Source of the DNA: Psammoneis japonica
Lineage: Eukaryota
Direction of reading: 5' to 3'
Assembly (NCBI GenBank): GCA_008632985.1
Contig: QPGO01000195.1
Location: 62,001 to 126,000 of the forward strand
Length of the DNA: 64,000 bases
This document shows, piece after piece, positions 1,622-62,827 of this stretch (the stretch's first letter is position 1; every line of letters starts with the position of its first letter). Under the pieces are notes generated by a model, which ran no database searches, was not told where the DNA came from, and saw only the letters and a list, made by a program, of their open reading frames with translations. A program made the position numbers and the translations under genes.

Positions 1622-4600
1622 CTACTTCGCAAGATAATTCAGCTTCGTCAATGCGATAGCTGTCACGACCTTCGACAAAATAATTGCAATAATAAGGTAC
1701 GTCAAATTTGCTGGAATATGATCAACCGTAAACTTGCCGCCAAAAGAAACTTCAACCCAAAGCTCCGCCGTCCCAGTGCATTCGGTCTTGTCCTCAAGCG
1801 CCTGGCATTCAGGCGTCAACAAGACAGCTTCGAAAAAGTCGCTACCGACGGATGGCGTGATCGGCGTATCATCGTTGTTGAACTGCGAAGTTACAAGGCC
1901 TTCGAGCACATAATGCCCGGGAAATGTCCAATATGCTTCATGCGAGAAGAGAGAAGCAGACGTGAGCGTCAAGAAGTATGTAGCTAGACAAACGAAAAAA
2001 GCGAGTCGCTTACCCCAAATCCAAAACCCGGTGATATCTTGAGGACGAATCAGGAGACCAGAGAACAACGAAGTCATTCCAATAAGAACCCCTCCAAAAC
2101 CCTGGGCTACTTGGCTATTTTTCGTCAAGGACACCATCATCTGGCCCAAGAAAGTGAACAGCCCGGAGTTCAACATGAAGAACAAGTAGTACAAGAAAAA
2201 CTTGTCCGCTTCCGCTGCAAAACCGACCATGAAGTAGAAAGGAACCACGAAAAGAGCACTAGCCATGAGAATGAAGGGGATTTCGGTTACCGAGAAGGCA
2301 ACTAAAGGCGCCATGGAGCCATACTAGACAAGGCAAGAAAAGCAACGAGACGTGAGAAGTACGAAGCTCCACGTGCACGCGATGCTGATGTCGTCTTCAC
2401 GTACCATAAGCGCAGCCTTGTGCCTATAAAACATGTTTCGCTCTGTCTCAAAGACACTAAGTACAGTGTTGTACGCATTCACAGCTGAGGTGCGCCACCA
2501 GAAGAGCAGCGAGGAGAAACTATCAGTAAAACAGTTCAACGGAAAAAGCACATTCGCAAAGAATGAAAGAAGAACATACCTAGGAAAAGCGTTGTGACGA
2601 ATATGGTAGTAACTCGCGAATTCATGTCACCTTCTGTCTCTGGTACCCTCTGACTAATATACACACTCCCTAAAGAGAAGGAAAGAAACGACAAGATAAC
2701 GAGGTGAGACGGACAAAATTCGGTTAAGCGACTTCGGATGCTGATACCCATCTCTCACCAAATAGCAACGAAATAATAACGGCGACAACCATCCTGGTCA
2801 GATTGTAGGTCGGCGAACGCCAGTAAATCTTGCTTGTGCGAGACAGGACAGATTTCAATTGAGTCTTCTTGCTCGTTGCGTACGTGCTCGGGAACGATAC
2901 TTCGTTGTCGTCCGTCGCGGACGCATCGAATTCGTCAATCCTGGCCAATGCGTCTGCTCTTAGTTTCGATGATGCGAAACTATCGGCATAGTTGAAAGGA
3001 GCGGCACCCGTCGAGCTGGACCCGGCTCCAATGGTGGTAAGCATCCTGGTGTTTCATACGAAGGCATGTTAGACACTACAATCGCCAAGTACTGTCTTGC
3101 ATGCAACGCCCAACTTACCAAGTCGCAGGGTTTTCACCGGGTTGGATTTTCTTTGTAGAAGGATACTTCTCCAAGTAATCAATTAAGTTCACGCTATCTT
3201 CCCCAAGCTCGCCGAAAAACACGGTTTGACCTCCGCGCTTCAACAACAACAATGCGTCAAACGAGGTGAAAATCGCCACACTGGGTTGGTGAACTGCGAT
3301 ATCGGAGAATGAATCTCGTGAGTACACGAAGAGGTAAACAACATCGTACACACTACCACAACAAGCTCGACACTCACTTGTGGCGCACACTGCTCTTCCG
3401 CCATCTGAGATCCTTTTCAGACCGCGCATCACAATGGACGCCGCACGGGAGTCAAGACCGCTCGTCGGCTAAAACCAACGAAACAATGCACGGTTAGGGT
3501 AGGGAAATTTGGGCAACCTCGTCAGACAATTAACGGCAAAGACATTGCATTGAAGGGGTCGAGAATGATAAGGGTGCTGCCCACCCATCCCTCCTCCTTT
3601 TCTCTTACCTCGTCCAAAAATATGATTGAAGGATTGGCGACCAGTTCAACAGCAATAGCAAGGCGCTTGTTCTGTTCAAAAGACAGACCACCAGTTAGGT
3701 CGCTTCCCACTTGAAGGTCTTGTATTACGGTTAGTTCCAACATTTCTAGCGTTTGTTCCACGAACTTGGTCCTGCTCTCTTGAGTCACTGCCGGGTCCGA
3801 CTCTTCCAAGCGCAGCGCCGCCGAAAACTCCACTGTCTCCCGGATAGTCAGCTGCGGGCTTTGGACGTCAAACTTGAAGGGGAAAAAAGTGAGCTATGGT
3901 GTTGCTTCGATGGGAGTACGACAATTTTACTTACCTGCTCGACATATCCAGTACAACGCCTGAAGGACAACGGTTCCTGCAAATGTCCATTTAAACGGAC
4001 TTCTCCGGTGATTTCTCCGCTGGTTTTCCGCAACGACAACACATCCATCAACGTAGTCTTTCCCGCTCCAGAGCTATTCAATTAAACATGGGAGGTGAGC
4101 ATTCGTTCTGCTATCGAGTTGGTGTGAGTTTCTCTGCACCGTCAGTCACGTACCTGCCCATCAGTGCAGTCATCTTTCCCGCTTCGAGATAGCCGTCAAT
4201 ACCTTGTAGAAGCTCAAGTTTCTCGTTAGTGATTGACGACTGCACAGTATAATGGATGTCCTTAAAAGTAAGATTCACTTCCTGAAACGGAAGGCCCACT
4301 TCGTCAGCTTCCTCTTCTACATCCTCTGCCTCCTCCTCCTCCTCCTCCTCCTCCTCCTCGTCGTCATCAAATTCTGTTGCCAGTGTCTTTCCAGTGTCAA
4401 AGCGTAGATAATTGAGAAAGAAAATGGACAGTCCTCCCGCGACGATCGAGATGCCAATAGCAAAAAAGAACCCATACCGAACCCATTCGTATTGAAAAGG
4501 TTCGCCATTCTGGAACCAAATGAAGGAGAAGAAACTTGTGAGGAAGTATTCGTACCAGTGAAAGTTCTGTCGCGACACGAGAAGGCTTACGAGCGTGAAT

Positions 4601-7451
4601 CCGAACTGGTCGAGCACCGCATCTCCTTCGGTTACTCCCGGTGCTACCTCATCGCTGTACTTTCCCGACTGGTATTCATTCACAACAAGAGCACGGAGAA
4701 TCCACGCAAACACATTGGCCCAATACACCCATACCCACTTGAGTTTGAGTAGTAGTAGTAGTCGGGCAGCAGTCGCAAATAGTATATGGTGACATTTGTA
4801 GAAAAGTTCAGAGAGAAAACAAAACATTGAGCCAAACAAATCACGAATCATTGGCCCGGAAGAATTCAGAGGCTTTTTAAGTTCTTCCATTCAAGAAACA
4901 GCCAAAAATACTTAAGGATTACTTACATAATCCGGGATAACATCTGGCTGGACAGTGAAGCCTGCGGAGGAGAAGGAAGAAAAACGAATGCATTAGCAAT
5001 GTAAGCCCCGAAATCGAAATCAAGGCCGTCAAACCAACATATTTATTGTACCTGAGAACAAAACGAGCACAATAATGGCTACGGACATTGCGGCCTGTCC
5101 AGTTGGCCTATCCGCCACTGCCGACGAGAAGACGCTGAAAATAAGACCAGAAGAAAGCGAAGCAATCAAGACCAACAGAAGGAAGATGAAGTAATTCGCA
5201 ATGGAAGCACCGTCATCGTAAGCCAGGCCTACAAACCAGTATATGATTGTACCGTAAACAACAGCGTCGATAATGGCGGTGGGGATTCCGGCGAGACTAC
5301 GACCGACCACAAATGTCCATGTCGGAAAAAAGTTCGCGTCTTGATGTTTGTATACAATGCCCCGAAGGTCAAACTGCTCTGGAACACGAAGCATCGATCC
5401 CAGAGAGATGAAAAACATTGACTGGTATAAAATGCCCATCACACTTTGCGGATTTTCCCACTGTTGCCAGAACACCGTCCCTGCCACAATACCCATGATC
5501 AAATCTGGACGAAGAAGAGAGAAGAAGGCGGGAAGAAGCGGTCAAAAACGAAAAGCCAGCAGTGCGCCGACACTAGAGACTTTACGAACCTTGCAGGATG
5601 CGCGCCTTGATCGTGTACTTGTCTCTCCACCAAAGGAGCATCTCGCGTCCAATAAGTAGCTTCAAAGACCGATACCACCGGTTTTTGAATTTCTTACTTG
5701 CAATATCTGTATGCAGATCATTATCGTGTTCCATATTCTCTTTAACAGTCTTCAGCAGAGCATGTCCACGTTGGCTTGCCTCGAATTTGTCAACGAAATC
5801 TTGGGTGGTCAAGTGTTTCTTTTCCTTGTTCACTCGAAAGGACGCACCATCACGAGTAGGCAAAGCCTACGGCAAAAAAAGGAAGGAAAACAATTAGCGG
5901 CAATAACATCAGTTTCCCTCGTCACTGTCACAAAACCAGCCTACCTGCAACCAATCGGCCGGGTCCATTCTATCTGGAATTTGGTATCCCAAGGATTCAA
6001 AGTAAGGAACAACCTCAACCACAGGCCCACTGTAGATGATGCGACCAGAATCGATCAAGACTAATTCATCGAATAGAGCAACCGTTTCCGGCGGTGGTTG
6101 CAGCAAGGAAACAATCTTGATGGTGTTTGTAAGCCTAGAGGTTGCGCCTAAAAGTTGCACAATATCGAAAGTCGTGGCAGCATCAAGGCCCGTGCTAATC
6201 TCATCCTGTGGCGCGAATGTATGGTATCTGGAGTTAGGCACGAAACCACAAGCAAAACCAAGAGGCAAACAAAAAAAAGTAAAAACTTACGCAACAGAGA
6301 ACCGGTACGCCGACGCACATCATTTCGGAGACGGTCACTCTCTTCTTCTCTCCTCCGCTTACTCCGCGAACGGAGACATTGTCGCCAACAAAGGTGTCGT
6401 TAACCCTGGCCAGTCCCATCCCCTTGAGAACTGCATTCACTAGGTAGAGGTCCTCGTCCAATTGTTTCACAATCTCGGCAACCTCCGCGTCGTCCATATC
6501 AAAGTTCACATGTTCATGTGTTCCCCCCGAACGACACTGCCATGCAAAAGTACATGTCTCGAGAACCGTGAGATACTTGTGGAGTCTATCAATCTGATCA
6601 ATGTGTGCTGTTAAATTCTGAAGCGTGAAAAAGCAACGTTACGGTGAGGCGCGACAATACACAACACGTGAAAAGATAAATCTAAAGGGATTGCTCATCA
6701 ATTACCTGCCAGACGACCTTCTTGTCTGAAGATTTGAGTCCATTGATCATGACATCGCCTTCTAGGACGTTTTTCTTGTCTTGACGAAGAGTGTTCGCGA
6801 TCATTTTCAGCAGAGTTGACTTCCCCGAGCCCGGGGCGCCAAGGACAAGGTAGAGCTTGCCCGACTTGAATTCGAGGTTGACCCCTTCCATGATGCACTT
6901 CTCTACTGTTTCTTCCTTCCATTTACCTGTCTTGAAAAACCTCTTCAACTTTCCCATGAGCTTTGTCGACATGCGTTCGGTGTGAACTGTTTTGATCTTT
7001 TGCTTTGCTCGTTTCGGGCCTTCCTGGTCGTCTTCCGAAGATGGTTCCGGCGCGACATTGGAAACCGTGTACTTTCCGTTAATGACTCTGCAGATATAAT
7101 GACGTTCTTCCACCTTAAGACTGGCCCAGAGCTTTTTAAACTCCATAATAAGTTCGTCATCTGCCGCCGCCGCACGCATGGAGACGTTCTTGGCAATCTC
7201 TGCTTCCAAAAGGGTCTCTCCGGAAGAACTTCCTTTCTCCACATCTTCGTCTCTAGTAATCACAGACGAAATCCTGTCGGGGATGGATACATCTTGCCTG
7301 AGGAGAAAACACATCATGTGGCGTTTGTTAGAGCAAACCAAGGTACGAAGTACACACATCCTCATCGCCGCATAAGATCTTACTCAGCACAAATGTTGAG
7401 AAGCTCCTTGTAAGCCTCCTCGCGCTTCAGAGAGGCTTCCTCTCCCGACAT
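1622..7451 (-). CDS. Full-size ABCG/PDR-type ABC transporter (NBD-TMD-NBD-TMD), many introns
   Basis: Walker A GAPGSGKS and GAGKTT, signatures VSGGEKKRV and [22 protein letters not shown]-like VHQPS, two TM blocks; ATG at 7451 in gccaccaccATG context followed by an intron. Confidence 0.92.
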
Positions 7452-8174
7452 GGTGGTGGCTTCCCTCGACTCGGAGCTAAAGCAAACAAAATTGATCTGC
7501 AACTACGATACCAGAGAATATAACAGGCGTCACGCAGGTGTCGCAGATGGAGAGAGAATGAGAGGAATCTGTTCCTCGTTCCTCGCGTAATACTTACTGT
7601 AACACCGCCTATTATCTTACCGTGGCGCGCACATCGACAAGATCGCATGGCGGCGTCACACAATTCTTAGTCGCGCAAAACGGCGGACAGACGGAAATAA
7701 ATTTTCTTATACAAGTAATCAAAGCTGAATAATGTTTCAAACTACTCCAACTCAACGGAAAGCGGGTGGTTCGTCCAGACCTCGGGAGTGGTGGGTTCGT
7801 CCTGATTTTCGCGCCAACATTATTATTTTAGGAAGCGACTTGGAACTAAACGTCTTCTCATCCCGCCCAGTGAGCCGTAGCCTCGTCGTTATATCACCTT
7901 TCAGCTCTCTGTGCGTTTCAAAGAGACAGTCAGTCTTCACGGACAACAAACCACACAGATTGGCAGCCAGCAGCTACCGCAGCTTTGCACTAGATCAAGA
8001 AAAGTGAATTCTCGCAAGGCGAGTCGTCCAGTCTTGAAGGGACTTCATGGATGGTGGCTGAGCGTTTGCGGAAGTAAAATTCATACAACAACAAGAAACT
8101 GGGGTCTAACAGACTCCAGTCCTCCCAGCTCATGCGTCTCCACCGGCAATCACGGCTCTTCGGAACTCTCGAAG

Positions 8175-9138
8175 TCACTCCCTCAGAAATTCAAAGTCAA
8201 GGTCCTCCCAATCCTTTGTAAACCAAAACCACATTGATGGCTGCCATGTGCAAATGAGCAAGAAGAATGATGTCAATGACGCATCGCAAACTGCTGCAAG
8301 AGCGGGAGCAGGCAAGTCAACAACGCACCGTCCGAAAAAACGTCTTGAGTGTAAATCGCGGTGCACTGATGAAGGGAAACAGCTCCTCGGCAACAATGTC
8401 CTTGGCATGAGGCTCGTTTTGCTCCTTTCGCCAGCATTCGCTCAAAAAGTGAACTTGACGGAGCCCAACAACCACATCTGATGGAGGCGGCAGCAATGCC
8501 CACCATGAACATAGAGGCGGCTCGTCTGAGGCATTGTTCTCAGTGCATGTCTCATTGACTCTGCGACATAGATTGACTTGTCCCAACAGAATCCAAAGTG
8601 CTGCTGACTTTAGAACAAGCTCACCGCCAGGGATGTGGAAGAGAGACAAGGGAAAGCCAACGATCACACCACAGACGAATGGGAAAAGAGTTCCACAGCC
8701 ACCGCACCCAGAGACTTTTCCTTCCCTTTGCAACTCATGTTGAAACAGTTCTTCTTCAATGCTGAACTTACAGCAGTCATGCCATCCCAAAGCGGTTGGA
8801 ATGCTTGCTGCAATTGCAAGCCACACAGGTCTTGAAATGCCTGGGGTCTCAGGCGGAGCCACAATTTTCGAGAAGAAGTCATTCCCAGCTGTTCCAGCCG
8901 GTTGCAGTTCGACACAATTCCTTGCAGGCTCAATCACGGTGCCTTTCCAAAACTCGTTTGCACTGACACAGAAATCATTGATCAACTTGTCATTGGAAGA
9001 GTCGTCGCCTTTCGCACGAGCTGCTGAAAAGGAATGCCGTCGACGATTGTTTTGGTGAGGAACAAATCCAGACACGCAGGTTGCTGATGCTGGAGACAGG
9101 AAAAGGGAGAGAACAGCCAGAAGAGAAGACGATGTCAT
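8175..9138 (-). pseudogene. Plastid-targeted membrane protein gene, probably inactivated (LINE in 5' UTR; TpA-hypermutated)
   Basis: Signal peptide + VSGF|VP motif; intron ~8328-8241 joins to PSMWFWFTKDWEDLDFEFLRE*; no Tyr in the 293-aa ORF, with Cys/His where Tyr is expected (GWHDCCKF, GGCGTLFPFVCG, NLCRR, SECW). Confidence 0.65.
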
Positions 9139-9216
9139 GGTGGGGTGGGCCAAGGCTGCTGTTAGAGAGCCACAACACGAACAAACGCGCGTGCGCACAA
9201 GCTAAAAAATGGCACC

Positions 9217-11601
9217 ATGGCACCCAAGAAACGAACCAACTCTGCGGTGAAGAGCAACGCTTCACCAAGGAAAGGCATGAAAAAGAAACAAAGTAAAGGA
9301 CAAGATGGCCAAGCAGCGGCAACGAACCTCATTGACAATCCCAAGAAAAAGGACGATGACTGTTCTGTCCAATGCCCACGCTGTCCAGTGCAAATTCCAC
9401 ACAAAACTCACGCAAGAAGACGCCACCTTACGGGACTCCGAAAAACACCGACGGTCGCCCTAACACCAGGAGTCAAGGACTCACCGAAGCAGAAAACAAG
9501 ATCACCCCAAATGAAGAAGTCATTGATGAGAAAGATCACATGCAAGAACCGACTGAAGAAGAAGATCAGAGCAAATTTCTCCCAGATCATCCCGACCCAG
9601 AATTGCAAGAAACGACAAAACCGACTGATGCAACGGACAACCTTGGTCTCACGAGCTGGAACCACGTTGACAATTCCGACGAAGACGATGACAACCTCGA
9701 CGACACCACAAAAAACCTCTTCGGCACCGAGTCAGAAGCCGCCAAAGAAGATCAATCGATGGAAGATGTCGAGGAAGACGAAGAAGCTCCGGACGAAGAC
9801 ATGCAAAGCGGTTTTCATCACACGGATGTCCGCTACAACGCCTTCATTGCCATCCCACCCTCCAAAAAACCTCTCAAAACGATCTCCACTGTGATCCGCA
9901 AAGCTGTTGACATCATTGGAGACGTTCTCGGAGACAAAGTGATGATCGGCACATGGGATCCGGAACTTGAGGATGCCTTCGGCACCTGGCGAGACGGCGA
10001 TGACGTGCCGGAAGGCAAAGCGCAAGACAGGGAGACCATCAGCTCTTTCATTGGCATCAACTGTCTTGCACCACAAGCCAATCAAGAGCACAAAACATGC
10101 GCTCAAATCCGCTTTGTTACGGTGCATGACCCCAACGACGGCGAAATCGACTGCGACACCGCAGCCGAAAGGAAATGCGGAGAAAGGCCACTCGGAGCTT
10201 TTGAAGACATCGAAGAAGGTCAATTCAACGTTGGCCGCAACCCCCTTCTGTGTCAGTCCACCCGATTGGAATGCATTGGATGGCTCTGCATGAGCGCCAA
10301 GACGATGAACGAGAAGACGCTTCACTGCACCATTCGGAAGCATCTCGGTCTGGAATTCAAGCGTGACTGCTTGGGACTCCAATGGCAAGCCATCGCACTG
10401 CCAACCGGATGCCGCCCAACCTTCAACAAGAAAGATCCAAAGAAAAACCCGAGGCTCTTCACCTTGTCGTCGACGTCAATTACGCCCACCAAGTTGAAGT
10501 GGCCGCTGAGAAGTTGTGGCGGGTTGGAGCACCCAAACGCATCCTCGGCCTGCAGCTTCGTCATGTCCCTTGCTGCTCCTCGCCAACCATGCGGAGCGCT
10601 CCAGATGACATCCGCGAGTTGTTGATGAGCTTGCACAGCGCCAACACTGCTTCTGCAACAATGTGTTGAGCCAAACAGACTTCAACTTCATTGCCAATCT
10701 CGACGTGATCCGGAAATCCAAGAATCCTCCCACGACCCTGCGAGCATTTCTGATGAGGAAACATGCTCAAGATCCTGCATCTGATGTCCCCAAGATGATT
10801 CCATTGTTTCATCACATCAACCACAAGTGGTGCAGGGAAAACGAATGCACCATTTCCTTCCCCAAGAAGAACTTCAAGAAAGCGATGAGCACCATCAACA
10901 ATCTCATCCCCGAGGTCCTTCACCACTTCGGACTGGATGCAGCCTTCTGGTTCACGTCGCTTGGCATCTCGGTCTACGAAAACACCGTCTGCAACCCGGA
11001 AACAGGAACCACCACTTCGACCCAGAGCAACAAGATCAAAGAGATTGTCGAAGATGACCCCTGGGGCATGGAGGATGACTGGCAAGCACAAAAGAAGGCA
11101 AAGGGCAGACTGAACGCCAAAGAAAAAAGGAACACGTCCAAAGTCACGTTGCCCAAGAAATTGCCAGCCTCGCCATCCAAGAAGGCACCCTCCCCAGCAA
11201 AAGAGGCAGCAGAGCGCCTCGCACAAGCTGATGACATTGGATCAACAGGAATGCTTCGGGACAAGAGCAACGACACTCAATGCTCCAAAGCCAACAAGAC
11301 GGTTCTCTTCGACAACGAGAACCCAGAAGAACTCCACGAGTGCAAGAGGGATGACGCATCCATCAAGACCACCGAATCCACCCACGCAAAGCTTCAGAAG
11401 TCCCTTGAAGTCAACGACAAACTCTCAATTGAAGTGGAGGAGTTGCGCCAGCAGCCAGAGGAAGCACGCAACGAAAATGGCGTGGCACACCACCCCAACG
11501 ATGAAGGTGGTGCACAAGCCGAAACCAGCCTCATGGCCATGGAGGCTGGACGACACGAACAGTCTGCACCATCCTCGGCAGGCCCGTCGACGCCTGCCTG
11601 A
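9217..11601 (+). pseudogene. LINE ORF1 (frameshifted)
   Basis: Protein-like reading split over ORFs 9217, 9372, 10382 and 10663 by about three frameshifts; basic N-terminus, acidic linker; ends TGA just before ORF2. Confidence 0.7.
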
Positions 11602-11639
11602 GGAGGACGTTAAACAAGGAACACCAAGTCGACAAACCA

Positions 11640-13440
11640 ATGAGAGGTGGGGGGTCTCCACGCTGCTGAAGAAGAAAAACAACATCCGGATCACCTTCCA
11701 CAATGCAGGATGCCTCCCCGTTAACCTCAGTGGGGCAGATGAACACAAAGGCATTCTCAAATGGATCTCTGATGATCAAGCTGATCTCATGGGGCTCAGC
11801 AAAGTAAACCTCAACTTTTCCAGAATCCCAAAACACGAACAATGGAGAGACAGATGGAGGAACCTGAAAGGTGGAAGCTCTGTTGTCGCCACAAACAAGC
11901 ACTGCTGCACAGAGAACAAAAGACAACATGGAGGCGTCGGACAGCTCTTGACATGCGACATCAGCCACCATTTGATTGCCAAAGGAACAGACCCAACAGA
12001 GCTGGGCCGCTGGACATGGATTAGGCTGCAAGGCAAAACAGGTGTTCATGCGAGGATCATGTCGACGTGCCGCCCCGTCCAAGACAAAGGAGGAAACCCA
12101 GGAAGAGTCCACTCTCAACAGGAGACATGCTTCAGCTCCAAAGGCGATGATCGGTGCCCACGAGATGCACCACTCTTGGACCTCGGCAAGGAAATCAAGA
12201 AGTGGCAGACGGAGGGCGATCTGATTGTCCCAGGAGGGGATTTCAATGAAAACGTTCACTCAGCCCCCTTTAGATCATGGGTGCACTCTCTAAACTTGAT
12301 CGACGCACTCAAGACAGCACACCCGACACTTGAGCCAGTGGCTGCTTGCGACAAAAACCAATCGGAAATTCAAATCGATGCCGTTCTTATTTCACCCTCA
12401 CCAGAAGTCAGCCGAGCAGGAATGTCTGGCTTTGGTGACTTTGACTGCACCTCGGACCACCGCATTGTCTGGATCAACATCATCAAGTCAAGCGCGCTGG
12501 GTTGCACTCCACCGAAGCTTGCCAACATCAACCCCGACAGACTGGCTGGCCAACTGAAAGAGCCCGAAGTGACAAAAAAATGCGCAACAAACCAGCAGCA
12601 ACCCAGATTTGTCAGGACGGCATGCCACGTCGAGTGATTGATCTTGAGAACGCCGAGGATTTCCCACCGCCCTTACAACAAGCCTGCGAAGAACTCTTTG
12701 AAAAAAATCACAAACTGCGCCAACACTCCAAAACCAAGTGCCGCAAGCTGCACATGAACGAGGTGGAATCTTCCAACAAAATCAACAAAGCCAGAAAGGA
12801 AATCCACCTGTGGCGCCCAATTTACAAGCTCCGACAAAGGCATCACGTCAGCATGTCAACGACATGCCGCCGCATGAAATGTGCTGGCCGAATGGACGCT
12901 CTGTCTGTTGCCTCGAACCATGTTCAGCAGGAACACAAACAAGCGATGAAAAGGCACTGCAGGCTAAAAAAGGATGCTGCCAAACACCGCCAGAATGAAT
13001 TTAAAACACGGTGCGCAAAAAGAGCTGAAGAAAGTGACACAACTCCAGAGCACGAAGAGAAACTCATCAGCCACAGCTGCCGACAAACCAAAGCATTCAG
13101 ACGAATTTTTGGACAGAAAGAACATCGGCCTTTGCTGGCTCTCAGGAGCAATTCAACAGCTGTGGAATGTCTCTTGGGACATGTGGCGACAACGCATGAG
13201 CGCCACTGCTGTGACAACTCGGCAACACAAATCAGAATCAACAGCCTTCTGGATGACAAGATCAAGGCGGAATTTGCCTCCTGCTTTAATTCACCCAATG
13301 CCTCTCCCCACCTCACAAGGTGGTTTGCCCAATCCATGGAAGAAGTCCAGGCAGAAACCACAGACTTCAAGCGCAACTGGATCGAAGCAGTCCGGGTGCG
13401 AAAACAACAACATGCTTCTGTGTCTTCATCGACAACCTCC
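11640..13440 (+). pseudogene. LINE ORF2: APE endonuclease + C-terminal remnant, reverse transcriptase deleted
   Basis: APE motifs RITFHN, GLSKVN, LGRWTW, GGDFNE, IDAV, SDHR; C-terminal LWNVSWDMW motif follows ~13140 with no RT (YxDD) core between. Confidence 0.8.
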
Positions 13441-14763
13441 TAGGCTCCACGGAGCCAAGTTGCCGATTGCCGCCCACAACTGCAAATGCGGCATTGCACA
13501 TGTTTTGTTGTGCATCGATGCTCTGAACCTGTCCACAGTTGTGGATTGAAAGGACTCTCAGGCGAATCTAAGCCCCAGGCAGCAGCCACTAATGGGCTGT
13601 GTAATTTTTAAGAATTGAATTGAATTGAATGGGCTGCTGTTAGAGAGCCCCACCAGTGCCGGCACGTAAAATTTGACTTGTGTTGTGTGCGTCAAAGCAC
13701 AGGGGTCGAACGAAGGCGCACCGGGTGCAGTGCGTGCCGCGCGTTCAGGAGAATTCTGAAGCTCGGACCTCGACAATTTTCATTTCGGTTGCCGTAAAGC
13801 TTACGCAGGAATTAGTAACATTTCTGAATGTGCTGAGTTCGAATGTACATTCTACACACAAAGTCATGGCATTAATTCTACGAAGGCACACAAAAATGAC
13901 AGTGATTGAGAAATTTAGCAACGGTCATGTCTCACTCAGAATCTCTCGGAAATTCTTTCGCGCTTTGCAATCACAACTCGTCGTCTCGCACGATGTGTTT
14001 GTTGTTCGCCAAGCCGGAAGCCGTAATCTCCGAGGATGGCTCGCCCTTCCTCTGGATTGAGAGCTCGCTCTTGTTTGGCATTCCACAACTCATTTTGCTT
14101 GATGGCGTGTTGTCTCTAGGTGGCGTAGGTGTTGCCAGTTAAGTCCAGAGGTCGGGGCAAATCGAGTGCGTCTCTCCGGCCTTGAGTCCATGTCACTCTC
14201 GTGTCTTTGAGCGTAGGAAGTTGCCTGTTCGCTTGACCCGTCAGGTCACGGCTGTTGAAACAGACAGCAGCGTTCGTCTGTGAAGCAGCAAAAGCTCGCC
14301 AAGCAGATCATGCCGTTGACGGAATGCGGGTTTGGGGTTCCGTCGTATCAGCATGACATGATACGGTAAGTCTTCACTCGCAGGGAGTGTTGATTTAGAA
14401 CGCGGTTGACTCGCAAGTTTTCTTGTTGTCTCCGTAGTACGTCCCCCCTTTTACATTTTTTAGAGTGATATTTTTCACTCTGAAGATACGTAAAAGCTGC
14501 GAGCGCCATCTTTTGATGGGGCTCTTGAGGCAACGTTACCCTACGCAACCGATTTCAATAGCTACTTCTGATATTGGTGTGTTTCAAATCGTTGAACCAC
14601 TATTGGAAACGTTTCAAATAGAAGCAGAAAGACTAAAAGTACAATGTAGCAATCTTTATTTGCGTGTAAGTTAATTCCGTACGTACGTCAATAGACTACG
14701 AAGGCGGTCGTAGCTCTCGGATCAGCATGAAGAGCAGAGCTGTCAAGAAGCTCAATTAAAGCT

Positions 14764-18986: not shown

Positions 18987-20280
18987 ATGAGCAGCGACCG
19001 CACTTCTGAGTTTCTATCTGTCGCTCGTGGTCTCAAAGAGTCAGGTTTGACCGTACAGGCCCCTTCTTCTTCATCATCTGCTCCTACTACTCCGGGTCGT
19101 AGCAGCGCGGCGAGTCCCAATGAGGATTTGAGGAATTTTCACAAAATGGCAGCGGCTCTGAGCAAGGACATTGCGGCTACGTCTGCCATGCTGGGAGAAT
19201 TGACTCGTCTGGTTCAATCCAAGTCGCTCTTTGTGGATAACTCGGGTCCCATCAACAATTTAGTCGTTCAAATCAAATCAAATGTGGAGAATCTAAACGG
19301 CAGATTGGAAGAAGCAGACGCCTTTATGAAGAGACAGAAACGACTTTTGAACAATAATCAGAGCTCGCAAGAAGCTGTCAATGTTGTGGGACAGTTGCAG
19401 GAGGAATTCTGTCAAACCACGGCGGGCTTTAAAAAGATTCTGCAGGAGCGAACGGACGCCATCAAGGATGAATCGCAACAGAAACAAATGGTCTATGGAG
19501 GGCACTCGCAAATTACCAAAAAGGACTCGGGCATTAGTTTGGAAAACAAACCGCCTGTCTATGGAGATTCGAGTACTATGGCACAGTCGTCCATGAAGGC
19601 AGCAGCGTTTCCAACCTTGGACTTGACGAGTGGATACGGTGGCATGATGTCGCCGGGGGAATCCACATCGTCGGGAAACGCACTACCCAGGCCGCGTAAG
19701 TCACTGTTGTTACTTATTCTTGTTTATACTGATTGATACTGCTGATGTTGTTTCATGTACATCTCACTTTTTCTCCTTCTATTGATTGCCTTTTACTTCT
19801 TTTGCTTCAGACGGCGCCCGTGCAGATTCGGCGTTTACTCCAAACATGAGGAGCGATTCGCTACCCACCTACTCGGGAGGCACCTCGTCCTATTATGGAA
19901 ATCTCAGTGCACCGTCCTCGACGCCAATGACACCACTGGATATTGCCAGAATGGAACAAGAATCCGGCCAAGAACAAATGATGCAATTGATTCCCGATCA
20001 AGATTACTTGCGCGAACGTGCCGATGCCATGGAGGCGGTGGAGAGCAACATTGTCGAGTTGGGAAAAGTCTTTAATCGACTTGCCACCATGGTGACGGAA
20101 CATCGAGAAATGGTGCGCCGTGTCGAGGACAATGTCGACGATGCCAACACCAACATTACGCTCTCTATGGAAACACTCACGGATACGCTCACGTCGTTAC
20201 GAACCAACAAGGCACTCTTTCTCAAGGTCTTTTCGGTTCTCGTCATTTTTATCATTTTGTTTATTACCTTTTTCGCATAA
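18987..20280 (+). CDS. STX5: Syntaxin-5/Sed5-type Qa-SNARE (intron 19696-19810)
   Basis: N-terminal DRTSEF motif, Habc helices, SNARE motif RADAMEAVESNIVELGKVFNRLATMV, C-terminal TM anchor. Confidence 0.9.
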
Positions 20281-20299: not shown

Positions 20300-20907
20300 T
20301 AATAATAATGATGATGCTCGAATGGCAAAGTAGTAGTAGTTGACTCTACTGAATGAGTTGTTTCAATATTGTTGTACATTCTCATGAAATCTTTGTCCTT
20401 TGTCACATTTCGGCATTCAATGTAAACAATAAGCTGCGACTTCATCTGAGCTCTACACTAGTGATGATGACGCTCAAGGACGAACTATTAGACTAGTTAT
20501 GGTTTTTCTTTTTCTAACCTCCTCTCGTCGCTCGGTACGGTCATCTTTGTTTCAGTACAAAGATTAAAATGCTAAGCTTCGACTTCAAGCGAGCTCTCAT
20601 AATAGTACTAATGATGATGCTCGAATGGCGAAGCAGTAGTAGTTACTCTACTGAAGAAGTCGTTTTCAGTTGTTGTATGTTGCCTTGGTCACACTTCGGC
20701 ATTCAATGTACACACTAAGTTGCTACTTCTAGTGAGCTCTACACTTTCGTGACGATGATCAATGACGAAGCAGTAGTTATGGCATTTGTTTTTCTAACTT
20801 CCTTTCAACATGTATTAAAAATAGTGAAACATACAAAACATCGCTCGGTACGGTCATTTCTGGTTTTAGTACAAAGAATGCTAAGCTTCGACTTCAAGCG
20901 AGCTCTC
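20300..20907. repeat. Diverged tandem duplication (~300-bp units) of a 3' UTR/convergent intergenic region
   Basis: Both units run from AATGATGATGCTCGAATGGC to CTAAGCTTCGACTTCAAGCGAGCTCTC (ending ~20598 and ~20907). Confidence 0.85.
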
Positions 20908-22279
20908 CTCCATAACAGAAGGCGTTTCGTCTTCCGATTGCCCTTTGCTTTCTTTCTTCTTGTGCTTCTTTTTCTTCTTTCGTTTTGTCGCGTCCTTTGT
21001 CTTTTGAATGCCTGCTCCCATGCCATCGCTCATTTTCTGAAACATGTTCCTATCCTTCACTTCTTCCCCTTGTTCGTCAGTTAGTCCTTGCTCGCCGACT
21101 AGTCCTTGCTCCTCATCGGGATAGAGATCCTCCACAGTATCCGGTTGGGGTGGAGCTGGGATTTCCGTCTTGGTGTAGGCATCAAACGTATTTGGATCAG
21201 GAAGCGCAGCAAGAAGTACGCCAACCCTTTCCGTGTACTCTTCCTCCGAGTACTGATCTTTGTACTTCTCAAGTAACGCAAGCTGTTTTTCAATTTCGGC
21301 AAGCTTGGCACGGCGGACGGCAGCAAGGGTAGCGGCTCTTGCCACAGCCGCTTGTCGCTCGTCCACCACTGCCTCTTGCTCGTCCACCACCTCCTGGCCT
21401 TCCTCGATACCTTTATCCGTAACCACCACAACTCCTCCTCCCTTTGCCTGTACCAATAGGGAGAACAAAGGCACATTAGAGAGGTTGAGCACAATTGAAG
21501 TAGTGCGATCGCAAGAAGTCACTCACCTGTACTTCTTCCTCCTCTTCCTCTTCTTCTGCAGTGTTCTCTTCATCTTCTTCTTCGCCTTCTTCCTCTTCAT
21601 CAATGGCTGTCTTGGCACAAACGGCGCACCAGCCATCCTCCTCATCCTTGTCTCTTGCATTCTCCCTCATTCGGATGAAGACTGGTACAGGCTTCGGCAG
21701 GCAGCATGCGAGACAACACGAAAGAAAGAACAAGATACAAGCAGCCGTGCTGACCCATGTCGACGTCGCTGGGCTGCAGGGGAATGGACCGTTCTTAAAA
21801 TTCGGATCGCATACGGGTGCTAAATAGATAAAGAACGTCAAAGCTTGACCGACAAATGCGACGAAGAACGCACAGGAAATCAACAGTCGACTGCAAGGGT
21901 ATCGGCAACAAGTTACTTCGAAAATGATGAGTACCAAGCCCACAATGCCTGCAATCGCTCCCATGTAAGCTCCAACCCTCGCGGCCGTGAACTGGCCAGA
22001 AACCACGTCAAAGTCTTCAGAGATCTCGCGGCAGCCTTCATTGTTTCGGTTGTAACGATAGAGCCCGACCGTGGCAAAGGTGATGTTGAGGGTGTCTGGA
22101 GTCCTGTTATCGTCGACTCCTTCCGGAGGTTCGGTTGGCTCATAATTAATGAATTCACAAGCACCGAGAACGATAATGGAGCAGATCACCGCGCAGACTC
22201 CACAAGTTACATGGAGAACGCGAAGCGTGATTCCTAACCAACCTTCACAGGCGCTCACTTTGCGCTTGGCGCTGCCCAT
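20881..22279 (-). CDS. Four-TM (claudin/tetraspan-like) membrane protein with acidic/coiled C-terminal tail (intron 21526-21448)
   Basis: Four hydrophobic Cys-rich helices, VGLYRY loop; GTGAGT...CAG intron joins ORFs 21476-22279 and 20881-21522 in frame. Confidence 0.75.
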
Positions 22280-22856
22280 GGTTCTTGTTGTTGCAGAGTG
22301 TCTCTATTGTCGCTCTGATTTTTTGTTCTCTCGTGTCGATCTTCGGACTACGTACCGGTAACTTCGCGCACCAGCTGACAGCTCTGACGGGGTGGGTTCT
22401 CGTCCGTTGCACCTTGATCAGAGATCGTGTGGGCGAGTCTTATCTTCAAGTCTCCAGTCTTGAACATGACCAAGATTTCTATAACCTTATTTACATGGCT
22501 GAATAGATTTCATAAATTTTTCGTAAATCTTGGCAGCTGCGCCGCCGCCCGTGTGGCTGGATGCCAGATGCCAGGTCAGCTGGTTGTTCTCTCATCTTTC
22601 TCGATTTGTACCTCTACTCCAGAGAACACTGTACTAGCTAGCTAGTAGTCTAGTTTTCCTACAGGGTAGCCACGTTCTCTACACAGTATATTTGCTGAGA
22701 ACTCACCTGTCAACAATCGCGCTGTTTTCCAGCCATGTTGCTGTCCTGCTGCATGTTTCATCTCTGTCGTTTAACCCCGAAACTCAACTGGGTGCAAATT
22801 AATTTACATTGTGCTATTGCGATAGTATTCATGATTTAACGAGTAAGAACTAGAAC

Positions 22857-23426
22857 TTAAATGCACATGATTTTAACCAACATGAAATGAATCTTCAACC
22901 TCCCCTCGAGCAAAAAGACAAGGAAAAGGAACTGAGCATCGTCAACCGTCTCCATGGGAAGAGTTTCGGGAGCAGCTTCTTCGGTACACGCTTCAGCCTC
23001 TGGTTTCTCATTTCTGTGGAACATTTTGTTTGTAGTGTTGGTGACGCCGGCACCCATTTTCTGAAACACATTCTTTTTCTGGGCTTCTTCGTGTTCCGAA
23101 CCTTCCAGAGGCGTCTCTTCGCCTTCAGGCGTTGCTTCTCCTTCTCTTAAAGAAGCTTCAACTGCAAGTGCCTCTTCTTCCACCTCCTCTGCCGGAGCAA
23201 GCAGGTCCGTCTTGGTGTACGCATCGCACGTAGCCGGATCCGGCAACGCTGACATCAAGTGGTGCACCTTCTCCTTGCACTCTTCCTCTGGCAAATGCTC
23301 CTTGCAGCGCGAGAGGAGATCGAGCTGCTTTTCAATTTCCTCCACCTTTTCGCGACGGAGGGCTTCTAGAGCGTGCGTAACAGCCACCGCTGAGTCTTGA
23401 TCTTGGGGGAGCACTTGGGTTGTCAT
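22857..23426 (-). CDS. Paralog of the C-terminal domain of the 20881-22279 gene, partly TpA-mutated, possible stop read-through
   Basis: EIEKQL..L...K....EEE....V..L..ALPDP.T.DAYTKT and FQKM shared with the neighbour; Tyr replaced by Cys at aligned sites. Confidence 0.65.
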   Translation of the reverse strand: MTTQVLPQDQDSAVAVTHALEALRREKVEEIEKQLDLLSRCKEHLPEEECKEKVHHLMSALPDPATCDAYTKTDLLAPAEEVEEEALAVEASLREGEATPEGEETPLEGSEHEEAQKKNVFQKMGAGVTNTTNKMFHRNEKPEAEACTEEAAPETLPMETVDDAQFLFLVFLLEGRLKIHFMLVKIMCI

Positions 23427-24799
23427 GGTCAATAGATGCGTTGGGGTTCTCGTCGTTTTGTCGTTTTGCGTTGTGACTGCGATCAGTCGCGTGTCGCAAG
23501 TCGCGTGTCACGTCGTTGTTCTTTTTGCTTGCACCGCAAATTCGCGTGGGACAGGTTCTGAGCCTCGTGACAGATGTGGCTTCGACCAACCGGTCTGCGC
23601 CACTTGCTTGGGGGCTGCTTTCTGTCAGTCATCATCGGGAAGAATGCTTGGAAGAAGGTGACAGAGGGCCGAGTGCGCTTCAATGGCAAGCAATGAGGCA
23701 TTTGGTGCTCTGTTGGTGCTCAAAAACAACTTGAAGAGAGGAAGCAGAATGGGTGTGGCCCAAGGGGACTCACGCGCTGGAGGCACAAAAGGGCCAGCCG
23801 CAAGAGAAACAAGGTGATGCCAGGGTTGGACAAAAGAGGGGCTGACCAAGCACCAGGAGTGGGAAAAAGTGGGTTGTTGATGACCAACAAAAGAGCACAG
23901 CAGGAGAGCAAGCTGGGGCAAAAGTTTTGGTCACAAAAGGGGTCAGCTCTGCTGCCACCTCTGTCGGAGCAGGGCACGAGGTGCCAAACAACAACAAAGG
24001 AAGCAACAATTTTGATCACTGCCTGGAGGTGTGGGTGCTTGTACAAGCAACATTGGCATTGCAGCAGCAATCTGTGGCAGTGCTGTGGTGCTCCCAGTGC
24101 ACTGAGATGGGGGCAGATGTGGAGTCGTTGCAAAGATTGCTGTTGTTGACAATTTTGAGAGTTGTTTCTGAGTTGGAACATGTCACCAAGAAAATGTTTG
24201 GATTCACTGAAGAATGGAGCAGAGCCTGCTCCTCATGCTCGCCAGAGGCATGACTTTGAGGGTCAGCCAAGTGCTTGATCTCTGTGATGTGAGGGGGTCA
24301 CTGTGCTTGCAGCAACTTGCAGTTGGAGCGCAGTTGCGTCAACACACACCCATTTGTTGGAGGGAGAGCATCAGCTGTGCTGGCTTGTGCAGTGAAGGCT
24401 TTGTGGTTGCACATCTCATCCTGCAAATTGGGGGAGTCTCATGACACAAGATGTTGTTGGCTGCTCCTGCCATTTTTCAGCACAGCTCATGACATGCGCA
24501 TTCCCCAACGACAAGGTCCGCAAGGTGCTGGGTGTCTCACAACCTGATGACAGGGCACAGGCAGTCTGCCACAGATTGTGCATGCTCGTCAGCATGCCAT
24601 CTTGTGTGCATGCAATGCACCATCACCATCTGTGCAGACAACTCTGGCAGGACCCAAATGACTGTCAGTCCCTCACCTCAAGAACTTTTGCTCCTGTTTG
24701 ACCAGCACCAAGGCGCGCAGTTGTCCTGCTGCACACTGGTGCTCCTTGCACTTGCCATTTTCTCATTTCACCTGGCTTGACATGCAAAATTTGACATGA

Positions 24800-27000: not shown

Positions 27001-27839
27001 CACCCTCTGGGTGCTGGCAGTGAGACAACAGCACAGGTGATTTCTTTTTCTTCTTTGCATGCCAAGTGTCAGCACATTGTGTGATTGGCACTTGGCATCA
27101 TGTGCTTTGCACGTGAGATTTTCTTTGACCAGTGCACACAGTTGCTTGTGATGCTGTGCAACAAGAACCCAGCTGAGCACTGCTGAGATTTTTGCTGCAA
27201 CAAAATGCTGGCAGTCTGCCAGCCTGCACATTGATGAGCACACTTCAAGCAGTTTGCTGCAATCTGGGCATGCACACACACAATGACTCTTTGGGCATCA
27301 CCTGCCTTGCAACATTCCTCAACATGACCCTCCAGCCCCAGTTGGAAGTCCTGCCTGCAAGTCTTGCAAGGGCCAAACATCTGAGTGGCACAACACATCT
27401 TGGCAGCAGCCAACCACCCTCACAAATGAGCACAGCTCTTTCTTTGTCTGTGGCTCAGCTGCTCACTTGACTGCCTTGACCTTCTTCATCAATCAAGTTG
27501 CCAAGAAGTGCCTTCCCCAGCAACTTCACATGCCAAAGGTTTTTGAGCAAGTTCAACAAAAGACAGGCTTTGTGGTGCTCACCTCAAGCCTGCCTGGTGT
27601 GTTGAAGCCTCTCAACTGCTTTGTCCCAGTTTCTCAAGAAGGTTGCCAAAAGCAAGCACTCTGCAATGACTGAAAGATCTCTGTGTGCACACACACAAAG
27701 GACAAACCCTGGAGTGGGCCAGACAATTTTTCCTGAATGTTGGGGGGGGGGGATGTTTCAGAAAAATGAGAAGCTGCAAAGCTTCCTGGGCATCAAGTCA
27801 AGGGGCACATGGTGATGACCCATGCTCAGATCCGGGGAT

Positions 27840-28236
27840 GACGTGCTCCAGCTCTGGGTGGGACCTTGCACTGCTGCACTGTGACATCAATGGTTTTTTG
27901 GATCATGTCGCATGTCGCGCATGCACATTTCTGTGTGTTGCATTCTACGAAATTGTTTCATGCTCCCTGTTTTGCGAAGCCAAAGGCTCTCCATTTTCAA
28001 CATTTGTGAGAGTGAAAATGTGCTGGGTGTGTTCTTCAATGTCTGAAGAATGCAACCGGGCAAACCATCAATGATGCACTTCAAGTGTGGAGGAGGAGAC
28101 ACATTCACAAAATTGCCTCTTTTTCTGTTGGCGGTCATTTGCACTTTCATTGCAGCACAAATTTGCTGCGGAGCTCGCACGCAGAATTCTGCGGGCCCAA
28201 TGTCACACGGAGTCCCACCCAGGACTGGAGCCCGTC
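27840..28236. mobile_element. MITE-like element with 25-bp terminal inverted repeats
   Basis: GACGTGCTCCAGCTCTGGGTGGGAC (27840-27864) vs reverse complement of 28212-28236 GACGGGCTCCAGTCCTGGGTGGGAC (22/25); related to 57810-58504. Confidence 0.7.
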
Positions 28237-31764: not shown

Positions 31765-31904
31765 GCAAGGCACTCTGACAATGACCCAAATTTTGTTGCC
31801 CATCATCTTTGCCCTTTGGTGGAATGCATGCTGTGCAAGGCACTCTGACAACAATCTAAATTTAGCTCATCACATCTTTGCCCTTTGATGGAATGCATGC
31901 TGTG
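31765..31904. repeat. 70-bp tandem repeat x2
   Basis: GCAAGGCACTCTGACAA...CTTTGCCCTTTG.TGGAATGCATGCTGTG at 31765 and 31835. Confidence 0.85.
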
Positions 31905-62370: not shown

Positions 62371-62827
62371 CACACTGCGACGTGCAATCTACGTTGACAC
62401 CCTGCATGTGCTTGCCATGTGTGCATTTCAGTGCTGTGTCTGCGGCAACAGCCTGCGCTTGCTCTCTTCGCTGAACATGAAATGTCAACCACCCAGCAGC
62501 ACACAATCAACGCCGACTGCAGCAGCATCTCTCTCTGTCAACACCGGCCCCATCCTTTGTTTCCATTGGCAATGTCTCCATCTCCATCAAATTTGGCACC
62601 AATTGCAAGCACAATGCACTTTGCTGCCTTTGTGCAAGTGCAGCCATGTCTGTGTTGTTGATCAGCCAAATCCTGCTGCAAAATTGTCACTCTTGTTTTT
62701 GACAGAAACAGGCACAAGTGCTCACTTGAATTTTGGAATTTCCTGTTCAACAGGAATCCTGCAGCCATTGAAGAAGCAGAGTCACCCGCGCATGCACGAA
62801 ACACACAAATTTGTTCTGTCCCAGACA

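Follow-up and report, generated by a model that had tools for sequence, protein, structure and literature searches.

A diatom LINE and two further DNA domains depleted of TpA, with matching gains of TpG and CpA on both strands

Introduction

Repeat-induced point mutation in fungi (RIP) is triggered by duplication and turns CpA into TpA by C>T changes, which makes TpA and stop codons and lowers GC content. Here we describe a change in the other direction in a 64,000-nucleotide stretch of the diatom Psammoneis japonica (GenBank assembly GCA_008632985.1, contig QPGO01000195.1, positions 62,001 to 126,000 of the forward strand; hereafter the window). Within it a dead long interspersed nuclear element (LINE) at 9172-13631, the single-copy DNA on its left side and two further blocks have lost nearly all of their TpA dinucleotides, with gains of TpG and CpA.

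The closest described counterpart comes from the chlorarachniophyte Bigelowiella natans. In mutation-accumulation lines, according to the part of the preprint available to us (Mettrop et al., bioRxiv 10.64898/2026.01.13.699255), two integrated viral regions gained 231 de novo substitutions; apart from a single one, all were A>G or T>C, each at a TpA. The rate was about 6e-7 per site per generation (1e-7 to 1e-6), in some lines only. The same part of the text counts 124 TpA-poor, CpA+TpG-rich clusters in the B. natans genome, finds reverse transcriptase, endonuclease-reverse transcriptase and DDE domains enriched among TpA-poor coding sequences, and names an ADAT2-like candidate enzyme.

A further point of comparison is 5-hydroxymethyluracil (5hmU) in dinoflagellates, made by a TET/JBP enzyme. 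According to the sections of PMC11572971 at hand, this base lies on repeats, helps silence transposons and overlaps 5-methylcytosine (5mC); in older work cited there, its preferred sites are the T of TA and of TC. For diatoms, the available portion of a Phaeodactylum mutation-accumulation paper (PMC6604790) mentions neither TpA nor transposable elements. The original prediction for this locus, made from its letters, held that no such system was known in diatoms; we found no report for diatoms in the full-text literature, and the 2026 B. natans preprint gives the phenomenon a precedent in a chlorarachniophyte.

Results

TpA depletion in three domains of the window

The window contains 1,685 TpA at a median spacing of 16.5 bp, and three stretches are nearly devoid of them. 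With the TpA-poor blocks masked, 38,925 bp served as the host baseline, in which the observed/expected ratios (O/E) are 0.60 for TA, 0.97 for CG, 1.15 for TG and 1.13 for CA. Normal 1-kb windows have a TpA O/E of about 0.5-0.8. The region 8175-13649, with 33 TpA, has an O/E of 0.11, compared with 0.43 in the remainder of the window. The depleted intervals are given below, with the expected TpA computed at the host rate and Poisson P values.

Left flank, 8200-9153: 6 TpA, 35 expected (P 2e-9); O/E TA 0.10, CG 0.63, TG 1.54, CA 1.43
LINE, 9172-13631: 25 TpA, 145 expected (P 9e-35); O/E TA 0.10, CG 0.77, TG 1.63, CA 1.22
Block 2, 23434-31856: 13 TpA, 314 expected (P 1e-114); O/E TA 0.02, CG 0.20, TG 1.76, CA 1.97
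Block 3a, 53450-59129: 14 TpA, 224 expected (P 8e-76); O/E TA 0.04, CG 0.58, TG 1.64, CA 1.65
Block 3b, 59831-64000: 11 TpA, 158 expected (P 1e-52); O/E TA 0.04, CG 0.48, TG 1.80, CA 1.83

Pooled over the blocks, the ratios are 0.04 for TA, 0.46 for CG, 1.72 for TG and 1.67 for CA. Comparison of all 16 dinucleotides clearly shows depletion in TA and CG only and enrichment in TG and CA only, while the other 12 change little; the dinucleotide GC is slightly up and AT slightly down in depleted DNA, as changes of TAC>TGC and TAT>TGT would produce. The four affected ratios keep their sum (3.7-4.15 in depleted intervals, 3.85 in the host), so the lost TpA and CpG have been turned into TpG and CpA. 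TpA-free runs reach 2,231 bp, in block 2, which has another of 1,673 bp. The signature is limited to three domains, one a LINE and two of no recognisable origin, together with one host-like gene; host genes are normal.

As had been predicted, a change of TA to TG or CA creates no new stop codons, as the genetic code dictates. It also erases TAA and TAG stops, and many overlapping open reading frames (ORFs) result: 18 ORFs of at least 100 aa overlap 7500-14500, and only TGA stops are left in 8100-14500 and in blocks 2 and 3. Most of the long overlapping ORFs on both strands of TpA-poor DNA are therefore likely to be spurious, and would mislead gene callers.

The LINE and its target-site duplication

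The depleted region at the left of the window is centred on a non-LTR (long terminal repeat) retrotransposon of a family with an apurinic-endonuclease-like (APE) domain and a reverse transcriptase. Its parts are as follows.

9154-9171, plus strand: 5' target-site duplication GGCTGCTGTTAGAGAGCC, an exact 18-nt match to 13632-13649
9172-13631, plus strand: the LINE, 4,460 bp, dead, internally deleted and TpA-hypermutated
9217-11601, plus strand: overlapping ORFs of the 5' part (9217-9894, 9372-10625 and 10753-11601), a possible ORF1 region
11231-12637, plus strand: APE-like ORF of 468 aa with an apurinic-endonuclease-like domain; 0 Tyr, 14 Cys, 20 His
12574-13107, plus strand: ORF2 continuation in another frame, family residues ~340-535 by tblastn, ending at the internal deletion
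13103-13413, plus strand: C-terminal end of ORF2, family residues ~1700-1870, by tblastn of five family members (P0010, P0011, P0014, P0015 and P0064)
13608-13631, plus strand: short tandem (GAATT)n-like 3' tail, read from the sequence
13632-13649, plus strand: 3' target-site duplication, an exact 18-nt match to 9154-9171

The interval originally proposed for the hypermutated element, 8175-13649, coincides with the TpA-poor domain and not with the LINE itself, which ends at 9172 and 13631. The target-site duplication said to bound the element is present and exact; its single TpA, in a TTAG context, is retained in both copies. Some 20 TpA had been estimated by eye in 4.4 kb, close to the 25 counted in 4,460 bp, and the CpG described as plentiful is broadly so, at a mildly reduced O/E compared with the host. 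In run X1, described below, two to five contigs were found per listed place over the LINE.

A phmmer search of 1.84 billion library representatives gave 1,944 relatives of the 468-aa ORF, confirmed to lack Tyr, at E<=1e-3, and the top one reached 3.6e-72 and 45% identity; many of these relatives are 1,800-2,100 aa long, and no near-length homologue of the ORF was found. Pfam Exo_endo_phos reaches the window ORF at E 0.004 and 17.3 bits, below the cut-off. A family member (P0013) matches Exo_endo_phos at 36.2 bits (cut-off 24.5) and RVT_1 at 37.5 bits (cut-off 29.6); zf-RVT was also matched, and only the first two are counted as above-cut-off matches. Family members of 1,800-1,900 aa align by tblastn through residues ~14-350 at 11573-12631, followed by a frameshift of ORF2 near 12580-12630. 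Family residues ~535-1700 are deleted before 13103. The loss of these ~1,170 residues, which include the reverse transcriptase, and the frameshift mean that the window copy is dead. It thus has the endonuclease-fold relatives, the target-site duplication and the tail of an APE-type non-LTR element, and no reverse transcriptase domain.

The 5' ORFs 9372-10625 and 10753-11601, which match no Pfam family, have Tyr shares of 0.5% and 0.4% of residues. Family proteins had no match in the window outside 9000-13700, an exact-sequence cluster look-up with five window proteins returned no match, and neither did an Rfam scan of the window.

Mutational loss in a family with normal tyrosine content

An element could lack TpA because its family does, and such a family-wide lack of TpA and Tyr had been named as an outcome that would overturn the prediction. 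The relatives are neither Tyr-free nor TpA-poor. Tyr makes up 0.5-4.4% of residues in the 150 relatives listed and none in the window ORF, and TpA O/E is 0.46-0.86 in 55 of 56 metagenome loci of the LINE family (the scan was seeded with the smaller alignment A2, A1 being too diverse). Counted by codon phase, TpA per kb is 0, 1.4 and 3.6 in the window copy, compared with 7.5, 13.4 and 15.8 in host coding sequence.

Six columns have a Tyr consensus when the ORF is aligned with 144 relatives. At these the window reads T, C, H, C, M and C, with the codons ACA, TGC, CAC, TGC, ATG and TGC, and it is alone among the 145 sequences in having no Tyr in any of the six. The T and M columns are non-Tyr also in the window's closest relatives. 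The other four are one-step products of TA>TG or TA>CA, and one of them is Tyr in 99% of relatives. Opposite the relatives' Tyr, residues in the window are Cys in 28.8%, His in 13.4% and Tyr in 0% of cases; in 14 control members, Tyr stands there in 20-41% and Cys in at most 4.6%. The family consensus motifs are RIISxYRP, IILGxDANED and TVYSQH. The motifs given in the original prediction agree with this consensus, and the codons foreseen there are present: CAT in QHGG, ATG and TGC in IMSTCRP, CCA in IVPGGD and GCA in NAG. Family Tyr columns have changed and relatives carry normal Tyr and TpA. On this sequence comparison the TpA loss in the LINE is mutational, as had been proposed, and neither selected nor inherited from the family.

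The nearest relative of the window ORF (protein P0003, 45% identity) is intermediate, with His in 17.6%, Tyr in 16.7% and Cys in 12.6% of positions opposite the relatives' Tyr, and it looks partly hypermutated. In overall composition this protein has Cys at the 99%-Tyr column, 1.3% Tyr and 5.3% His. The remaining metagenome locus, contig L048:1-1501, is a distant member of the LINE family with 3 TpA in 1,501 bp and O/E of 0.04 for TA, 1.57 for TG and 1.48 for CA. At the family Tyr motifs it reads ..AAHRP.., ..STCSQQ.. and ..GGHLAFG.., with His or Cys. Other loci from the same metagenome (L005, L021 and L055) are normal. The signature in this contig indicates that the process exists outside the P. 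japonica genome.

A depleted single-copy flank beyond the element

The flanks of the LINE differ sharply from one another.

8108-9153, no strand: left flank, the TpA-poor single-copy zone outside the LINE; TpA spacing widens from 8107
8317-9138, minus strand: host-like gene of 273 aa, its ATG 16 nt from the LINE insertion site
13650-14700, no strand: right-flank multi-copy repeat, not hypermutated, a negative control for a repeat-triggered model

The genes beside the element had been taken to have normal TpA, which is wrong for the left flank: TpA O/E at 8200-9153 is 0.10, equal to that of the LINE. One contig of run X1 covers 7001-9255 at a depth of 61.5, the single-copy level. The depletion thus reaches about 1 kb past the target-site duplication into a single-copy gene, bearing out the proposal of an action on DNA. 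Because DNA beyond the duplication is equally depleted, editing of a retroelement RNA cannot explain the loss; the process acts on chromosomal DNA and spans a domain, not an element.

The 273-aa gene has 0 Tyr (P 0.003), 7 His and 13 Cys (the probability of at least 15 Cys at the host rate is 3e-5). Its best cluster in the ESM Atlas (0.95, with 214 of 256 features shared) is a 309-aa hypothetical protein, mostly of Bacillariophyta; it has no Pfam match, and a metagenome scan for its relatives gave 61 pattern matches, none of them confirmed. This gene appears to have been reached by spill-over of the mutation process.

The right side is different. Interval 13650-14760 has 45 TpA where 46 are expected (O/E 0.60) and a CpG O/E of 1.17. 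Over the repeat, run X1 has 7-19 contigs per listed place, with a summed depth of 2,700-6,450 compared with about 60; no Pfam or Rfam match was found for 13650-14700. Possibly this dispersed repeat is a young element, or an active one, that the mutator does not reach.

Both strands, sequence authenticity and recent variation

In the APE region, the sense strand of the window has 5.9 TA, 68.7 TG and 110.9 CA per kb, compared with medians of 41.2, 56.4 and 84.6 in 39 relatives. This baseline replaced a measure of strand bias from TG/CA O/E, which we dropped because it is confounded by the skewed base composition of the LINE. TG and CA have both been gained on the sense strand, and Tyr columns read TGC as well as CAC; both strands have therefore been affected, in agreement with the original prediction. 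Blocks 2 and 3 are strand-symmetric.

The public run X1 consists of 657,387 contigs with a mean of about 214 nt and looks like short-read data. Its contigs differ from the window at 6 positions over 7001-9255 (2,255 bp), at 7 over 22628-25860 (3,233 bp) and at none over 26056-27000 (945 bp). The six differences over 7001-9255 are two TA/CA (7890 and 8380), three CG/TG and one transversion; at 8380, within the 273-aa flank gene, the window has CA and the X1 contig TA. Among the 40 places listed of 1,086 that differ, 7 read CA or TG in the window and TA in the run, and 6 of these lie in the TpA-poor domain. Run X2 barely covers the LINE and the flank gene, if at all, and no contigs of run X3 were placed; a look-up of RNA data sets containing 7600-14200 gave none.

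CpG decay, targeting and sequence context

TpA and CpG O/E rise and fall together over 128 windows of 500 bp (Spearman 0.74), and TpA O/E runs inversely to TG/CA (-0.80). CpG below 0.6 never occurs in these windows together with TpA of at least 0.4, and five windows combine TpA below 0.25 with CpG of at least 0.85. In the LINE about 83% of the TpA expected is gone, compared with about 20% of the CpG, and CpG O/E falls from 0.77 in the LINE to about 0.5 in block 3 and 0.20 in block 2. This suggests that TpA is lost first and fast, and CpG slowly afterwards.

Targeting had been ascribed to repeats or heterochromatin, and the repeat-directed part of that proposal does not stand. The multi-copy repeat at 13650-14700 keeps a TpA O/E of 0.60, while DNA of single or low copy number, which includes block 2 and the flank gene, is depleted (0.10 in the flank). 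The trigger is thus not copy number. The domain common to TpA loss and CpG decay points to methylated or silent chromatin as the target.

The 69 surviving TpA are far from a random sample of contexts. TTAA accounts for 18 (26%, compared with 4.3% in the host) and CTAA/TTAG for 23 (33%, compared with 9.2%), whereas ATAT and ATAC/GTAT, which hold 19% of host TpA, account for none. TAA makes up 54% of survivor contexts compared with 23% in the host, and TGC is the trinucleotide with the largest gain. The survivors imply a preference of TAT >= TAC > TAG >> TAA, equivalent to ATA >= GTA > CTA >> TTA on the opposite strand.

Blocks 2 and 3

The other two domains lie well away from the LINE.

22875-23433, no strand: graded left edge of block 2, where TpA spacing widens; overlaps ORF 22860-23507 on the minus strand
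23434-31856, no strand: block 2, 8,423 bp with 13 TpA, the oldest and most decayed, essentially TpA- and CpG-free
53450-64000, no strand: block 3, essentially TpA-free, extending past the end of the window; an islet at 59130-59830 is partly normal

Domain edges are graded at 8107-8769 and 22874-23433, and others are sharp. The minus-strand ORFs 22860-23507, at the edge of block 2, and 20884-21522 are paralogues with 40% identity over 114 aa and no Pfam family. Compared with its paralogue, the edge ORF has Cys at two of four aligned Tyr and retains one, and its TpA is thinned; at 40% identity this is weak evidence, and spill-over into this ORF is possible.

Pfam found nothing credible among the 79 stop-to-stop ORFs of block 2, the sole match being far below the cut-off and at the right edge, and gave only four sub-threshold, unrelated matches among the 75 ORFs of block 3. 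A 485-aa ORF of block 3 (59814-61268) had no match in the PDB or in viral contigs.

Between the internal duplicates of blocks 2 and 3, transitions outnumber transversions by 240 to 76. Over 1,386 aligned bp these duplicates show 46 double differences of the CA<->TG type, compared with 2 in 510 bp of two control pairs; several block-3 pairs overlap one another, so that their counts are not independent. The host pair 43204/43294 was left out of the comparison, being a self-alignment with overlap. Such doubles are the pattern expected of independent changes on both strands of a self-complementary dinucleotide, and can stem from TpA or CpG ancestors alike.

Some further structure is visible in these blocks. 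Tandem duplicates at 56181-56830 and 62813-63316 in block 3 have units of ~121-150 nt and ~240-274 nt; their copies share 62-94% nucleotide identity and 84-99% in purine/pyrimidine code, the divergence being almost only transitions. Short inverted matches link 27834-28236 in block 2 with 57810-58510 in block 3 (for example, 104 nt at 80% nucleotide and 96% purine/pyrimidine identity), which suggests that the two blocks have a related, heavily decayed element in common. The islet at 59130-59830 has O/E of 0.30 for TA and 0.90 for CG, with its TpA clustered at the ends (59130-59290 and 59750-59830), and may be a junction of two elements or a later insertion.

Other features of the window

The neighbouring Utp21 gene is a single ORF of 1,073 aa; the proteins that match it best come from diatoms, at 47-57% identity, among them Nitzschia, Seminavis, Cylindrotheca, Attheya and Pseudo-nitzschia, and the window also has HSF-type genes. 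An ESM Atlas look-up with the DAO gene gave no guide to taxonomy. Contigs of run X2 skip 86 nt at 7296-7383, where the ends CT..AC read GT..AG on the minus strand, and skip 115 nt at 19695-19811 (GT..AG). Run X2 thus behaves like RNA, and the gaps would be introns of an ABC-transporter gene and of a SNARE-domain gene. The genome is intron-poor. Tandem repeats of 81/90 nt, in about six copies at 43204-43824, lie within ORF 42744-44147, which is GC-rich and encodes an Ala/Pro/Lys-rich repeat protein of no Pfam family. The TpA O/E there, 0.33-0.45, is the lowest of the host regions.

Discussion

The pattern in the window is very probably the work of a targeted, DNA-level mutation of TpA to TpG or CpA in particular chromatin domains. 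Such a process would convert 5'-TpA-3' to TpG or CpA (A:T to G:C) on either strand, and would be confined to a dead LINE with its adjoining host gene and to two older blocks of probably foreign or repeat-derived DNA. The same domains would lose CpG, the mark of cytosine methylation, more slowly than TpA. Tyr codons would become Cys or His, the codons ATA, TTA, CTA and GTA and the T/A codon junctions would change too, and TAA and TAG stops would be erased with none creatable, leaving a heavy missense load and long spurious ORFs. The core of the original prediction, a two-strand, domain-targeted conversion of TpA in DNA that kills elements by missense load, holds.

What the sequence shows is the signature and its direction, the action on both strands and on DNA, the limits of the domains and the bias of context. 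From this we infer a dedicated enzyme, its recruitment by chromatin that is silent or methylated, and a role of the process in genome defence. The chemistry may, tentatively, be that of an ADAT2/TadA-like adenine deaminase acting on DNA, with A converted to inosine and read as G. The U-A-C context of TadA's tRNA substrate recalls the order of contexts seen here.

Because TpA is its own complement, adenine deamination and thymine oxidation are indistinguishable by sequence alone: T>C on one strand is A>G on the other. The adenine mutator of the original prediction is therefore not separable from a chemistry directed at thymine. A TET/JBP-type dioxygenase might act on silenced DNA and turn the thymine of TpA by oxidation into 5-hydroxymethyl- or 5-formyl-uracil, with mispairing or faulty repair giving T>C. 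This would be a rival for the chemical step only, and we consider it rather unlikely. 5hmU or 5-formyluracil would have to give clean T>C transitions. The context bias can be read from the 5' neighbour, as ATA >= GTA > CTA >> TTA, and the dinoflagellate base, as far as the available sections of PMC11572971 describe it, sits on transposon-silencing repeats and overlaps 5mC. However, TpC is not depleted here (TC O/E 0.96 in the blocks and 1.12 in the host; GA 0.98 and 1.09), and we encountered no evidence of 5hmU in diatoms. Alternatively, the loss may be a by-product of repair, in which T:G mismatches from 5mC deamination recruit patch repair and an error-prone polymerase mis-inserts at TpA. 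The WA hotspot of polymerase eta and the joint loss of TpA and CpG, with no CpG-poor window retaining TpA, speak for such a coupling. A WA-type polymerase should deplete ApA, though, and ApA is not depleted (O/E 1.29 in the blocks, 1.17 in the host); five windows show near-complete TpA loss at normal CpG, and the de novo changes reported in the available part of the B. natans account fall on TpA only (bioRxiv 10.64898/2026.01.13.699255). We regard this explanation as improbable.

ADAR-like A-to-I editing of the retroelement RNA before reverse transcription, such that copies are born edited, has a very small probability. The 5' U preference of ADARs, as given in the part of the preprint at hand, suits TpA (bioRxiv 10.64898/2026.01.13.699255), and Cys outnumbers His three to one at the Tyr columns of the APE ORF. 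As the sole cause it is refuted by the equally depleted single-copy flank and by the gain of CA alongside TG on the sense strand, and blocks 2 and 3 are strand-symmetric. ADARs, which to our knowledge are confined to animals, prefer a 3' G, and the order here, Y > G >> A, differs. An intrinsic composition or selection against TpA, through TpA-poor donor DNA or avoidance of a TA-specific nuclease, has in its favour that host TpA is itself under-represented (O/E 0.60), and is scarcely credible: it is already contradicted by the 55 of 56 family loci and 150 listed proteins that are normal, the Tyr of the 99% column is replaced, all codon phases and non-coding parts are affected, and so is the host-like flank gene. 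An artefact of base calling, assembly or polishing, for example a modified base read as G, carries the slimmest chance of all. If run X1 is the source sample of the assembly, its contigs exclude assembly and polishing error but not a base-calling error common to the reads. Nevertheless, TpA-free sequence was recovered in contigs built independently from that run, an unrelated metagenome contig (L048) and the nearest relative of the APE ORF show the same pattern, and the domain edges match a biological landmark, the target-site duplication.

Several observations weigh against a targeted TpA mutator, or limit how far it can be taken. Run X1 may be the very sample from which the window was assembled, and no de novo event was observed in this diatom. 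CpG decay yields the same TG and CA products, so the excess is not fully apportionable between the two processes. The multi-copy repeat adjoining the LINE is unmutated, and spill-over from the LINE is seen on one side only. The Tyr-to-Cys history of the flank gene is read from its composition, and the ancestral sequence of the LINE from relatives at no more than 45% identity. The 55 of 56 environmental loci are unmutated, with the proviso that heavily mutated copies are harder to find by homology. Blocks 2 and 3 carry no recognisable transposon or viral domain, and calling them foreign is our own reading. Finally, the window proteins searched with Pfam include no candidate enzyme, just as the original prediction had stated.

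It is tempting to speculate, and we hold the chances to be evenly balanced, that diatoms and chlorarachniophytes have in common an old enzyme-driven defence, recruited to methylated silent chromatin, which erases TpA from transposons, integrated viruses and neighbouring host genes and leaves the fingerprint TAY > TAG >> TAA. Functionally, such a defence would correspond to fungal RIP while running chemically the other way; its fingerprint should identify the enzyme, and it would be an unrecognised force on gene loss, GC content and orphan ORFs in major marine primary producers. If the process is the same as that in B. natans, the diatoms would be a second, ecologically dominant lineage, which argues for an old or recurrent eukaryotic defence by editing of adenine (or thymine) in DNA and makes a comparative enzyme search possible. 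Moreover, hypermutated elements escape domain-based annotation, as illustrated by the ~19 kb of blocks 2 and 3 without a credible Pfam match, and the process can destroy neighbouring genes silently, with no stop codon introduced. Hypermutated copies can be looked for by the Tyr-to-Cys/His pattern, and candidate enzymes judged by the TTAA/CTAA survivor pattern. Base-editing work, too, would have an interest in a natural DNA adenine editor whose sequence context is defined.

Comparison with known systems

The similarity to RIP lies in dinucleotide-specific transitions that permanently disable transposons, and RIP too can leak into single-copy neighbour genes. Here, in contrast, TpA is destroyed, CpA is enriched, no stops are made and GC is raised; the change passes over a multi-copy repeat and strikes single-copy DNA, so that both features that define RIP fail. 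Deamination of 5mC (CpG decay) occurs in the same domains with the same TpG and CpA products, but it cannot remove TpA and is the slower process here. ADAR hyper-editing and APOBEC3 in animals are likewise deaminase-driven hypermutation of mobile elements, and ADARs have a 5' U/T preference. These enzymes work on RNA or single-stranded cDNA, on one strand and within the element, and APOBEC gives G>A; the pattern here fits none of this. The 5hmU system of dinoflagellates, as described in the available sections of PMC11572971, belongs to the same SAR (stramenopiles, alveolates and Rhizaria) lineage as the diatom, is aimed at repeats, has a TA preference and overlaps 5mC. It is an epigenetic mark, not shown in those sections to be mutagenic, and TpC, preferred there, is undepleted here.

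B. natans, as far as the accessible part of its description goes, remains the closest match. In both cases TpA goes to TpG or CpA on both strands and in the direction of GC. The affected domains of B. natans stand in an otherwise normal genome, and in the window host genes outside the three domains are normal. Nearly all B. natans changes are A>G or T>C, as are those seen here, the CpG-derived C>T being a second, co-occurring process. The hosts are distant, a chlorarachniophyte and thus a rhizarian there and a diatom, a stramenopile, here. The B. natans domains are foreign-derived, whereas those in the window are one LINE, two blocks of no recognisable origin and one host-like gene. Depletion here is near saturation (O/E 0.02-0.10), compared with a Rho of 0.45 in the giant-virus (nucleocytoplasmic large DNA virus, NCLDV) region of B. 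natans, and what we see is a long-term footprint, de novo events not being among our observations. The spill-over into a host gene, the coupling to CpG decay and the 3' neighbour bias are features of the diatom locus, and none of them was seen in the part of the B. natans account that we could compare.

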